Of a DNA stretch of 64,000 bases, positions 30,321-32,841 are shown piece after piece. The stretch covers positions 5,271 to 69,270 of the forward strand of contig DAICZA010000001.1 of the NCBI GenBank assembly GCA_027311385.1, in the 5' to 3' direction. A program made the translations under genes and the position numbers. Numbering within the stretch: the first letter of the stretch is position 1; every line of letters begins with the position of its first letter. This stretch comes from a bacterium (GTDB taxonomy: Bacteria > Patescibacteriota > Minisyncoccia > Phycocordibacterales > Phycocordibacteraceae). The notes under the pieces are model-generated. The model ran no database searches and was not told the DNA's origin. It saw only the letters and a list, made by a program, of their open reading frames with translations.

Positions 30321-30695
30321 TTATTTTGACGCACGGGCGCCGAAGTAACAAGCCTCGACGTTATTCCCGTCGGCGTCGTGAACAAATGCGGCATAGTAAT
30401 TCGGGCCGTAGTCGCGGCGGAATCCCGGGGCGCCGTTATCTTTGGCGCCGGCCTTGAGCGCAGCCGCGTAGAAATCCTGTACCGCCTTTTTGCTTCTCGC
30501 TCGAAACGCGATGTGCGTGGCTTGCGGCCGCTTCTGCACTGCAATGATGAAGCTCGCGTGCCCTCCTTCCATAAAGCCGGCGGCGTCCGGCGCCCATTCG
30601 TACTTCAGCTTGTAGCCGAGCGGCTTCAGCGCAGCGGTGTAGAACTGCACCGCCCTGCGATAATCGCTCACCGGAATTGAGACATGCTCAATCAT
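30321..30695 (-). CDS. VOC (glyoxalase/bleomycin-resistance) family protein
   Basis: MIEHVSIPVSD...AFVHDADGNNVEA typical of the VOC fold. Confidence 0.6.
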   Translation of the reverse strand: MIEHVSIPVSDYRRAVQFYTAALKPLGYKLKYEWAPDAAGFMEGGHASFIIAVQKRPQATHIAFRARSKKAVQDFYAAALKAGAKDNGAPGFRRDYGPNYYAAFVHDADGNNVEACYFGARASK

Positions 30696-30770
30696 GGCGG
30701 CAGTATACCATTGCGACATAGCATTTTTCGGTTAGTATACGAATACGCCCCTGCAAAGGGGCTAATAGAT

Positions 30771-30919
30771 TCCGCGGGAGCTCAGTGGTAAGCCCTCCGG
30801 GCTTTCTGCGTCGGCACTCGGCAGAAATGAATGTGCAGACGCATTCATTCCGCCTCACTTCTCGCAGTAGAGCGGATCGCCTCGAGAACATCGTGCAAGT
30901 TCATCGTCTGCAGTTCCAT
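30771..30919 (+). ncRNA. structured RNA-like region beginning with a 20-nt near-copy of the tRNA-Asn 5' end
   Basis: TCCGCGGGAGCTCAGTGGTA (19/20 identical to nt 30920-30939) followed by hairpins AAGCCC-TCC-GGGCTT and AATGAATG-N8-CATTCATT; does not fold as a complete tRNA. Confidence 0.3.
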
Positions 30920-30953
30920 TCCGCGGTAGCTCAGTGGTAGAGCGGCTCGCTGT

Positions 30954-31518
30954 GGTTAAAGTTCAGAACCCGATGGTATACTGCACAGAGTATGCCAAAA
31001 GAAAAAAGAACTTATGCCGATCGTGCCGAGTATTTGCGTAAGGCCGTTTCCGAACGTCGTAAGAAACTTCGTGAAATGGCGCGCGAATACCGGGGCGGGA
31101 AATGTATGATTTGTGGTTACAAACGGTATTCGGGAGCACTTGATTTCCACCATCGAGACCCCACGAAGAAAGACTTTGGTCTTTCTGTGAAGGGACTTAC
31201 GCGATCGTGGGAGAAAATCAAAATAGAGATTGAGAAATGTGCTCTCGTGTGCGCAAACTGTCATCGCGAAATACATGCAGGCATTACGCAGCTTCCTACA
31301 GAAATGTAGACTGAAAACGAGGTGAATTCGGGGAAACCCTAACAGAGGAAATGCTGTGGGCAATCCCGAGCCAAGTCCCGAGAGTAATCAAGGGAAAGGT
31401 GTAGAGACTATCCCGCAAGGGAGTAGACCGAAAGGTCGAAGCGCCTCGCATCCGACATTTACGAAATGTAAAAAGGATGATGATATAGTCCATCCCGCCA
31501 GTAACGGCGGAACAAATG
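30954..31518 (+). ncRNA. group I intron with embedded HNH homing-endonuclease ORF
   Basis: P7-like pairing (AGACTA...TAGTCC) in the 3' core, omega-G, U at 5' splice site; ORF sits in a peripheral loop. Confidence 0.6.
30992..31309 (+). CDS. HNH homing endonuclease (intron-encoded)
   Basis: CMICGY...HHRDP...CANCHREIH: CxxC/HH/CxxCH zinc-finger HNH motif, 105 aa. Confidence 0.8.
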   Translation: MPKEKRTYADRAEYLRKAVSERRKKLREMAREYRGGKCMICGYKRYSGALDFHHRDPTKKDFGLSVKGLTRSWEKIKIEIEKCALVCANCHREIHAGITQLPTEM

Positions 31519-31716
31519 TAACGAGTTGGTCGTAGGTTCGAATCCTACCCGCGGAGCTAGAAACAGTTAGGCCCTAATGCGAAAGCATCGGGGTCTTACT
31601 GTTTCTCTTCGTCGGTAGGATTCGAAGGCCGGAGGCGGACGCGCCGAGGCGGGGTCGCGCAAAATCTCAGCAGAGATTTATGCGCGACCGAGTCCTGCTC
31701 CCGGAGCCGAGTGAGC

Positions 31717-31752
31717 AAAACAAAAGAGCCCTCTTCAGGCTCTTTTGTTTTC
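31717..31752. terminator. bidirectional terminator-like hairpin (AAAACAAAAGAGCC-tcttca-GGCTCTTTTGTTTT)
   Basis: 14-bp stem flanked by A-run and T-run. Confidence 0.5.
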
Positions 31753-31851
31753 GAGCGAGGCTCCGCGGGTATGCCTACATACCCGCGGAGCAAGGTAGGG
31801 ATGGAAGTGTGATAGCCTTATGGCATACAACGTGGCGCGAGTGGGCAGGTC

Positions 31852-32841
31852 ATGACTATCGTGCTCGTAGCCATTGCCCTAGCCGGTATTGTCGGGGTGT
31901 GTGCGGCCAGCGCGGAGGGCTCCCGGGAGAGCAACCGGGCACTTGACGAGACTTGCACAAAATTGGATTATTATGGAATCATGCGCTCTTCAAGAATTCA
32001 GCAACAGGCGCTCTTCATAACACTCCTGGCGTGTCTCTTGTCTCTCGTCGCCTATAAGGTATGGGGTACCCGGCAGACTCCCGTCTCTCAGACGGCCACG
32101 GTGGCAACTTCTATCGAGTCATGGGGTGAACTGGCTCCCGTGCCGGCAATCCCTGTCCTGTCCGCTGGATTCCCCTACATCGAGATTTTTGACAGCTGCA
32201 ACTGGGCGTACGCGGGCACCTGCGTCAATTTGCGTTCGGGTCCGGGCACGAATTTCCCCGTCGTGATGCAATTGCGGAACAATATAGTACTCAAGGTGGC
32301 GAGCACCACGGTGGTAGACGGCCGCACCTGGTACCAGATTGGCTTTGACGCCGAAATTCGTTACCCCGAACGCGTAACGAGCGATTGGTATGTCGCTGCG
32401 GATTATGCGCGGCTATTCTACGACCCCGGCCTCCTTGCGACGACAACAGGGGTGGACGCTTCGAGTGCCAAGCGGATTGTCATAGACCGCACCAAGGAAA
32501 TGCTCTACGCATACGACGGAGACGCGCTCTTCATGCAGCAAGCCATATCGGTTGGCCTGGAACTCACGCCGACGCCGCGCGGGACTTTCTATATATATCG
32601 CAAGCTGCCCGACAGCTACATGCAAGGCCCGATCCCGGACCTCAGTGACCAGTACTACGACCTGCCCGGTGTCCCGTGGGACCTCTATTTCACCAAGGAC
32701 GGGGGTGCTATCCACGGCGCGTATTGGCACAATAACTTTGGGCGGCCGTGGTCGCACGGATGCGTGAACTTGCCGCCCGCCGCCGCCGAGGTTCTCTACG
32801 AATGGGCCGATCTCGGAACGCCTGTCATCGTGACGGACTAG
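31852..32841 (+). CDS. L,D-transpeptidase (YkuD domain) with SH3b-like domain
   Basis: Catalytic HGAYWHNNFGRPWSHGCVNL motif, SH3_3-like TCVNLRSGPGTNFPVVMQL...WYQIGF; N-terminal TM. Confidence 0.8.
   Translation: MTIVLVAIALAGIVGVCAASAEGSRESNRALDETCTKLDYYGIMRSSRIQQQALFITLLACLLSLVAYKVWGTRQTPVSQTATVATSIESWGELAPVPAIPVLSAGFPYIEIFDSCNWAYAGTCVNLRSGPGTNFPVVMQLRNNIVLKVASTTVVDGRTWYQIGFDAEIRYPERVTSDWYVAADYARLFYDPGLLATTTGVDASSAKRIVIDRTKEMLYAYDGDALFMQQAISVGLELTPTPRGTFYIYRKLPDSYMQGPIPDLSDQYYDLPGVPWDLYFTKDGGAIHGAYWHNNFGRPWSHGCVNLPPAAAEVLYEWADLGTPVIVTD

Follow-up and report, generated by a model that had tools for sequence, protein, structure and literature searches.

A tRNA-Asn gene split in its anticodon

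We analysed a 64-kb stretch of DNA (the window) from a draft Parcubacteria metagenome-assembled genome (MAG) and found that positions 30920–31557 very probably represent a tRNA-Asn(GUU) gene split between U35 and U36 by a self-splicing, IA-type group I intron with a gene for an HNH homing endonuclease inside it. All features of this locus lie on the plus strand. The 5′ exon (30920–30953) comprises the acceptor strand, the D arm, the 5′ anticodon stem and residues C32, U33, G34 and U35. It is followed by a 565-nucleotide (nt) intron (30954–31518) between anticodon positions 35 and 36, preceded by U(−1) and ending in the terminal guanosine (omega-G, G31518) at the 3′ splice site. The 3′ exon (31519–31557) supplies U36, A37 and A38, the 3′ anticodon stem, the variable loop, the T arm, the acceptor strand and the discriminator G73; CCA is not encoded at its 3′ end. 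Joining 30920–30953 to 31519–31557 in silico produced a canonical 73-nt tRNA-Asn cloverleaf with the loop CUGUUAA, as judged by ARAGORN. This agrees with an earlier reading of the sequence (the original prediction), which had assembled tRNA-Asn with the same loop from the same 5′ half and a 3′ half, and had proposed a 565-nt intron that begins after a U (U30953) and ends in G (G31518). It had placed the 3′ exon at 31519–31556; the start stands, and the end moves to 31557 because the discriminator G73 had been missed.

This gene escapes routine annotation. Run on the 64-kb window without its intron mode, ARAGORN called a tRNA-Glu alone and did not call the tRNA-Asn. When introns were allowed, as the original prediction had proposed for tRNAscan-SE, it called a tRNA-Asn(gtt) at 30920–31557 with a 565-nt intron after position 35. 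The product of the open reading frame (ORF) in the intron is identical to OYV63825.1, named a hypothetical protein in GenBank, from Parcubacteria group bacterium 21-58-10 (GCA_002255405.1), a lineage in the Patescibacteria group. The gene list obtained for NCBF01000001.1, the public contig, assigns the ORF no Pfam family and shows no tRNA gene at the position of 30920–31557. Since both default ARAGORN and the public gene list miss the gene, the MAG would appear to lack tRNA-Asn. Many of the published intron-split tRNA-Asn genes are likewise missed by default finders, so that such genomes can seem to lack this tRNA and their completeness scores are affected. The value of the tRNA-Asn intron finding itself is this practical one, and the point about missed genes has already been made by Nakagawa et al. 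(mSystems 2026; PMC13011429; preprint July 2025).

The same arrangement recurs in other species. Using the HNH protein as a query, we found 1,446 relatives in the protein collection and 399 species-representative genomes that encode one, and fetched the best 80 loci. We then tried every combination of U|...G| boundaries at 35/36 in 81 loci. A tRNA-Asn(GUU) could be rebuilt in 60 of the 81 loci, with the window counted (59 fetched), with introns of 499–712 nt and U|...G| boundaries at 35/36; the last intron base is a G in all 60. Contig ends truncate several more of the loci. Homology between the window and other species starts at the first base of the 5′ exon, 30920, and ends at 31557–31563. 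The composite element of tRNA-Asn, intron and HNH gene thus recurs in 59 fetched loci of other species, far beyond chance.

Another way to read the boundaries is that the host is a tRNA-Thr(UGU) with the intron at 33/34. ARAGORN indeed labelled 21 of the related loci Thr(tgt), with the intron at 33 or 34. Moving the boundaries by two bases, however, would make the intron of the window end in A31516 rather than in G, and we rejected the 33/34 boundary on this ground. In addition, ARAGORN calls Asn at 35/36 in the window, and all 60 resolved loci give Asn(GUU) with U(−1) and omega-G. The discriminator in the window is G73, a feature of Asn identity. The ambiguity is documented in the published survey, in which ARAGORN and tFind often mislabelled tRNA-Asn 35/36 genes as Thr(UGU) 33/34, whereas the spliced products sequenced in vitro confirm 35/36 for a homologue (PMC13011429). 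Taken together, these results make a tRNA-Thr host so improbable as to be practically negligible, and we continue with tRNA-Asn(GUU) split at 35/36.

The group I ribozyme core

Consistent with a group I intron, the Rfam model RF00028, whose gathering score is 50, matched 31222–31511 over model positions 1–253 with a score of 79 bits (E=2e-18). The original prediction had named the group I models as the way to look for a P3–P9 core, and such a core is detectable here. An E-value-mode Rfam scan of 30500–32000 did not find RNA families beyond group I.

To examine the core across species, we aligned 57 ribozyme parts from 57 species (alignment A1) and projected onto them the structure that we had derived by hand for the window, comprising P2, P3, P4, P5, P6, the P7 pseudoknot, P7.1, P8 and P9 (44 pairs). 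Standard pairs occupied 93.2% of the cells formed by the 44 pairs and 57 sequences, compared with 33–51% when the partners were slid by 1–3 columns. Double-sided changes were found in 29 of the 44 pairs (369 cells), and none of 500 shuffles reached the observed values. Every nucleotide that is invariant across the 57 relatives is also kept in the window copy. Helices P2–P9, including the P3/P7 pseudoknot, are therefore supported by covariation.

The individual helices follow the group I order. P2 (31295–31310) is a hairpin with a GAAA loop that holds the stop codon of the ORF; of its six pairs, five have changed on both sides, and pairing is found in 98.8% of cells. The 5′ strand of P3 (31318–31324) pairs with 31442–31448, its 3′ strand as placed in the covariation alignment, through seven pairs, four of them compensatory, with 95% of cells paired. 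The P4–P5–P6 domain (31328–31400), which has conserved A-rich joining segments J4/5 and J5/4, is paired in 95–100% of cells and consists of P4 (31328–31333 with 31364–31369), P5 (31337–31339 with 31358–31360) and P6 (31370–31372 with 31398–31400); an example of the covariation in this domain is CGGGG/CCCG versus GCTGG/CAGC. P7, the guanosine-binding helix, is formed by 31406–31410 and 31486–31490; it is invariant in 57 of 57 sequences, the Rfam alignment agrees with it, and its 3′ strand is preceded by the conserved J8/7 GATGATA. This is the pairing that had been picked out from the sequence as a P7-like AGACTA/TAGTCC match. P8 (31449–31453 with 31475–31479, enclosing an inner hairpin; 31449–31479) has compensatory changes in four of five pairs. 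So does the P9 hairpin (31495–31499 with 31506–31510; 31495–31510), in which the share of paired cells falls to 69.5%, probably because the alignment is poor there.

Two further hairpins lie between P7 and the 3′ strand of P3, and both are insertions relative to the Rfam consensus: P7.1 (31411–31422), which has a GCAA loop and covaries, and P7.2 (31426–31437), which has a GAAA loop. Extra P7.1 and P7.2 hairpins at this place are a structural hallmark of subgroup IA. Judged by these two hairpins, the architecture of the intron appears to fit subgroup IA, in agreement with the IA assignment of its published homologues (PMC13011429).

A long-range P1 with the ORF in its loop

The 5′ splice site is paired over a long distance. 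Reading the sequence together with ORF-less relatives of the intron, we assigned the 5′ strand of P1 to 30949–30954, that is, exon residues G-C-U-G-U and intron G+1, and its 3′ strand to 31287–31292, an internal guide sequence C-GCAG-C that lies within the ORF codons ...T-Q-L.... Base pairing of the guide GCAG (31288–31291) with CUGU at the end of the exon puts the splice-site U30953 opposite G31288, as a U·G wobble. The outer pairs in the window copy are G30949–C31292 and G30954–C31287, giving a P1 of six base pairs (bp) in total.

The ORF-less relatives show this assignment directly. All ten of them have a compact hairpin of the form CUGU|N, a loop of 4–8 nt (23 nt in one) and N′GCAGC, and the N/N′ pair beside the splice site covaries among them (C–G, G–C, U·G and A–U). 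By comparison with this compact P1, the whole endonuclease cassette of the window sits in the P1 loop (L1). The last nine codons of the ORF and its stop (31285–31310; ...I-T-Q-L-P-T-E-M-stop) overlap both P2 and the guide sequence. None of the 57 aligned introns departs from GCAGC, even at synonymous sites; thus, RNA and protein constrain identical bases.

Two other placements of P1 were considered and rejected. The RF00028 alignment, which places P3–P9 correctly, puts P1 and P2 at 31222–31260, inside the ORF and with many non-canonical pairs, and we replaced this placement with the long-range P1 formed by 30949–30954 and 31287–31292. As a consequence of the misplacement, intron coordinates taken from the Rfam hit are off by ~270 nt at the 5′ end. 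A local P1 with the sequence just 3′ of the 5′ splice site was also discarded: no guide there wobble-pairs U(−1), and the ORF-less relatives decide the matter.

In two relatives, L019 and L037, intron position +1 and the base 5′ of GCAG form no pair (G·A), and the 3′ splice-site assignment AAG|TAAGG aligns poorly. The intron boundaries at these two loci may differ from those of the rest of the class. Separately, free-standing copies of the HNH gene, described below, keep the tail of the ORF in degenerate form (for example, GIAQVP in L064).

The HNH protein is under purifying selection

The ORF (30992–31309, with the stop TAG at 31307–31309) encodes a 105-amino acid protein with the motif CxxC...HH...CxxCH, as had been read from the sequence at the outset. 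This protein scores 21.7 bits with Pfam HNH (PF01844), for which the cut-off is 21.4, and the same Pfam model is matched by 41 of the 43 members of its protein family. Residues C38, C41, H53, H54, C87, N89, C90, H91 and H95 are invariant in the 43-member alignment, and the window protein is full-length and keeps all 28 family-invariant residues. A profile of the family matched the HNH (En) domain of 6me0, a group II intron reverse transcriptase (E=6e-4), and gave a weaker match to McrA. Such hits required the profile; a single-sequence search of Protein Data Bank sequences returned chance CxxCH matches to c-type cytochromes alone, which we discarded. An AlphaFold (AF2) model built from the alignment had a predicted local distance difference test (pLDDT) score of 88, and its top fold matches were all HNH nucleases (Cap5, T4 endonuclease VII, Cas9 HNH, Gme and T5 SciA), with weak scores (E≥0.13; template modelling (TM) score ~0.4).

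The ratio of nonsynonymous to synonymous substitution rates (dN/dS) against nine relatives was ~0.02–0.08 wherever it was computable; dS is saturated, which makes these values approximate, yet they are clearly far below 1. The ORF is therefore under strong purifying selection. The layout of the loci is also largely uniform: the ATG typically lies 25–40 nt past the 5′ splice site, the ORF typically spans ~104–110 amino acids, and in the fetched loci its stop is usually 140–250 nt ahead of the 3′ splice site.

One relative departs from this pattern. L003 (CAYLPX010000001.1, within 2501–2803) is a close relative with 89% identity and has an in-frame TGA at the codon for the invariant Trp73, leaving a called protein of 71 amino acids. 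Its sequence suggests that this is probably a decaying endonuclease gene, and a recoded TGA would be the alternative.

Several observations weigh against reading 30920–31557 as a functional, intron-split tRNA gene with a homing endonuclease. The closing pair of P2 is a C·A mismatch in the window copy. P1 is short for a helix that spans a 332-nt loop, and P10 (31519–31521 with 31284–31286) has at most 3 bp, being possible but weak. The Pfam HNH score of the single sequence barely exceeds its cut-off, and the structural matches to HNH nucleases (E≥0.13) are weak. Finally, the tRNA scan covered the 64-kb window, and a second, intron-less tRNA-Asn elsewhere in the genome is possible.

The last of these points leads to the idea that the tRNA-Asn has become a pseudogene, inactivated by insertion of the intron or the ORF, and that its function is served by an intron-less copy at another place in the genome. 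In the 64 kb of genome inspected there is one other tRNA (Glu); fragments of degenerate tRNA-Asn occur close to the gene, and P2 has one mismatch. A pseudogene would not be expected, however, to keep every nucleotide that is invariant in 57 relatives, to have exons that yield a perfect cloverleaf, or to belong to a family in which compensatory changes across species maintain the structure and the ORF is under strong purifying selection. Moreover, intron-bearing and intron-less copies of one anticodon rarely share a genome (PMC13011429). We rejected the pseudogene as very improbable on the grounds of conservation, covariation and purifying selection, and favour a tRNA gene from which the intron would be spliced.

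A hairpin at the start codon

Folding of the segment 30974–30997 gave a 9-bp hairpin, TGGTATACT/AGTATGCCA, with a 6-nt loop and with the start codon of the ORF (30992–30994) in its 3′ arm. A stem of at least 6 bp was present in 77 of 81 loci, whereas mononucleotide shuffles gave one in 44% of cases, and covariation with codons 2–3 of the ORF was seen in the outer pairs. The start-codon hairpin is also present at free-standing HNH copies, and we found no description of it in the papers searched. By sequestering the AUG, the hairpin should block initiation of translation on the pre-tRNA. A precedent is I-TevI of the T4 td intron: an RNA hairpin hides its translation start and thereby keeps translation from disturbing splicing.

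The 5′ arm, TGGTATACT, also reads as an extended −10 box (TGnTATACT or TATAAT) located 9 nt ahead of the ATG. A two-hexamer promoter and terminator scan of 30650–31900 called nothing, so it is the sequence itself that speaks for an internal extended −10 promoter in TGGTATACT. It is conceivable that such a promoter would give a near-leaderless mRNA that does not contain the 5′ arm of the hairpin.

Free-standing and phage copies of the HNH lineage

The HNH gene stays close to tRNA-Asn even where it lies outside the intron. In all 70 fetched genomic loci with a resolvable, complete tRNA-Asn gene, the HNH gene lies inside this gene or within ~120 nt of it. It is inside the intron at 58 loci. At ten loci it is free-standing beside an intron-bearing tRNA-Asn whose intron has no ORF, on the upstream side, on the downstream side or on the opposite strand. 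The original prediction had suggested looking for intron-less tRNA-Asn genes in relatives; such genes adjoin a free-standing HNH gene at two of the 70 loci and, according to ARAGORN, at L080. The free-standing loci are L023, L025, L027, L032, L035, L038, L050, L055, L060, L064, L066, L077 and L080. For loci that seemed to lack a 5′ exon we considered a split, trans-spliced tRNA, which we rejected: the 5′ exon was found downstream of the free-standing HNH gene each time.

In a neighbour-joining tree (~100 residues, drawn without support values), free-standing copies were scattered among the embedded ones, at a minimum of five or six positions. This interleaving suggests repeated movement of the HNH gene into or out of the intron. 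In the sister pair L057/L064, the main difference is whether an identical 37-nt 5′ exon stands upstream or downstream of the HNH gene.

The lineage extends to phages. We found relatives with 48–65% identity on at least 562 contigs of IMG/VR and, among cultured phages, in 478 records that cover many host phyla. In a sample of 80 fetched viral loci (L082–L161; 67 distinct), the HNH copies are free-standing genes within tRNA arrays, and a group I core was found in 3 of the 80. The immediately adjacent tRNA gene is tRNA-Asn in 50 of the 67 distinct viral loci, compared with ~20% expected from array composition (binomial P ~1e-21, a value overstated because related phages share gene order). Annotated genomes agreed with this in part: Bacillus phage Bastille has the order tRNA-Asn, HNH, tRNA-Asn, and in Yersinia phage fHe-Yen9-04 the HNH gene is 62 nt upstream of tRNA-Asn; phage loci with such relatives include NC_018856.1 (5857–6685) and NC_042116.1 (309324–309956). 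In Bacteroides phage DAC15, the HNH gene lies in the tRNA array with no annotated tRNA-Asn beside it.

These data bear on whether the ORF still serves homing. Instead, it might be retained because it helps splicing (as a maturase) or acts as a general nuclease, or it might be decaying. The intron appears to be fixed in many lineages, a stage at which homing-endonuclease genes (HEGs) usually decay, and L003 has its in-frame TGA at an invariant Trp. ORF-less versions of the intron also exist, and the HEG-less homologue of PMC13011429 splices without protein, so that the ORF is unnecessary for splicing. Against the loss of a homing function stand the invariance of the catalytic and zinc-binding residues, a dN/dS far below 1, and the tight linkage to tRNA-Asn, which is kept when the gene is free-standing and in phages, as expected of a mobile endonuclease linked to its target. 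We consider a non-homing role unlikely and retain the HNH protein as a putative homing endonuclease.

It is possible, and we put it forward tentatively, that this HNH lineage is specialised on tRNA-Asn and exists in three states: in phage tRNA arrays, free-standing in some Patescibacteria, and in the P1 loop of the intron. While the intron is of a known kind, the gene that it carries may not be. We regard the HNH–tRNA-Asn association across phages and Patescibacteria as a moderate lead. The concept of an endonuclease gene beside its target tRNA gene is not new, having precedents in SegB, mobE and the phage HNH genes noted in tRNA clusters (PMC6409571). Free-standing HNH copies are not mentioned in the mSystems paper (PMC13011429), and a limited literature search did not find a paper linking the HNH lineage to both phage tRNA-Asn genes and the Patescibacteria intron.

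If the three-state reading is true, it would offer a large natural series of a free-standing endonuclease and a group I intron merging into a mobile intron, apparently repeatedly. Phages would possibly act as shuttles, and the published view that these tRNA introns are transferred to a limited extent would need qualifying. It would also help to explain why tRNA-Asn is a persistent target, as the anticodon loop is unable to mutate away from recognition. If the side observations hold, the 399 species-level genomes, the at least 562 viral contigs and the 478 cultured-phage records would provide a data-rich test of "collaborative homing".

Proposed mechanism

From these features we propose how the element may work; the best-supported account is self-splicing in two steps, initiated by guanosine. 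In the pre-tRNA, the exon end GCUGU and G+1 would pair with the guide C-GCAG-C (31287–31292) to form the long-range P1, with U30953 in the U·G wobble. The P3–P9 core (31318–31510) would bind guanosine at P7 and cleave after U30953, and the terminal G31518 would then be used for exon ligation, restoring the anticodon loop CUGUUAA. Splicing of the window copy is thus predicted from its sequence. By analogy with other intron-encoded endonucleases, the HNH protein would cut intron-less tRNA-Asn genes, and repair would copy the intron and its ORF into them; both its endonuclease activity and its target site are proposed on this basis. In the pre-tRNA, the start-codon hairpin may serve a regulatory role by keeping ribosomes off the folding ribozyme.

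Relation to known introns and endonucleases

The element is already known as a kind, and its arrangement was published in 2025–26; the instance in the window alone is new, coming from a draft MAG outside the complete-genome set. In the survey of 95 complete Patescibacteria genomes by Nakagawa et al., 15 of 22 tRNA group I introns lay in tRNA-Asn(GUU) at 35/36, the commonest place, and 25 of 28 introns at 35/36 were assigned to subgroup IA (PMC13011429). Endonucleases of the Pfam HNH family are encoded in four of the tRNA-Asn introns, each exceeding 500 nt (PMC13011429). The combination of host and ORF, which the original prediction had taken to be unusual, can therefore no longer be called so: a tRNA-Asn intron at 35/36 is the most frequent tRNA intron of Patescibacteria, and some of these introns carry HNH genes. 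Precise self-splicing in vitro was reported for one intron of tRNA-Asn and one of tRNA-Asp, with a G-to-C change at the intron's 3′ end as a control; the tRNA-Asn intron that spliced at 35/36 was a HEG-less homologue from GCA_016700035.1 (PMC13011429). The same paper credits Williams 2020 (bioRxiv 10.1101/2020.01.27.920355) with first listing the type, as 'Asn.4Ug'.

Coming from a Parcubacteria MAG and showing every class-defining feature examined, the element in the window falls inside this published class. It shares the host tRNA, the anticodon, the insertion site, U(−1), omega-G, the IA-type architecture and the phylum, as well as the Pfam HNH gene of the long (>500 nt) versions; like many members, it is missed by default tRNA finders. 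We found no substantive difference from the class: the window copy comes from the draft MAG GCA_002255405.1 and is not annotated as a tRNA.

Other bacterial tRNA introns are more distant. The cyanobacterial tRNA-fMet intron that encodes I-Ssp6803I is, like the intron in the window, a group I intron in the anticodon loop of a bacterial tRNA, and it encodes a homing endonuclease of its own that is directed at the anticodon region of genes without the intron. Unlike the intron in the window, it interrupts tRNA-fMet at 33/34 and its endonuclease has a PD-(D/E)XK rather than an HNH fold. It is expected to belong to subgroup IC, like most bacterial tRNA introns in the survey. The classic bacterial tRNA group I introns, in Azoarcus tRNA-Ile (36/37) and in Anabaena/Nostoc tRNA-Leu(UAA) (34/35), belong to IC3 rather than IA, have neither P7.1 and P7.2 nor an ORF, and occupy other insertion sites. 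The survey also notes PD-(D/E)XK genes in tRNA-fMet introns (PMC13011429).

Phage T4 provides further comparisons. Its td intron, with I-TevI, resembles the intron in the window in belonging to subgroup IA and in having an endonuclease gene whose start is sequestered by a hairpin. It differs in the type of enzyme, as I-TevI belongs to the GIY-YIG family, in the place of the ORF, which is the loop of P6, and in having a protein-coding host gene, whereas the ORF of the window lies in L1 and runs over the guide sequence and P2. SegB, a GIY-YIG enzyme whose gene lies within the tRNA cluster of T4, cleaves tRNA genes, with a preference for that of tRNA-Asn in T2L (PMC2330249). SegB recognises the T arm, whereas the lineage found here is HNH and, in the window, embedded in an intron. 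T4 mobE is described as a free-standing HNH endonuclease that promotes homing of I-TevIII in trans (PMC2790892). In both the SegB and the mobE systems the endonuclease gene adjoins its target; the free-standing HNH relatives likewise adjoin tRNA-Asn.

Sequence around the tRNA-Asn gene

Directly past the 3′ end of the tRNA lies a long imperfect hairpin, AGAAACAGT...ACTGTTTCT (31559–31606), which matches no Rfam family. Degenerate pieces of tRNA-Asn flank the real gene at 30771–30790, 30867–30880, 31614–31626 and 31760–31791. They include, 130 nt upstream of the gene, a 20-nt stretch that repeats the acceptor and D arm (E=8e-4; 19 of 20 matches), a 14-nt stretch that matches the region of the D arm and anticodon stem, and, downstream of the gene, a 13-mer that resembles the T arm. 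In addition, the 12-nt 3′ end of tRNA-Asn occurs twice as an inverted repeat (GCTCCGCGGGTA...TACCCGCGGAGC). Earlier duplication or homing may have left these degenerate pieces behind.

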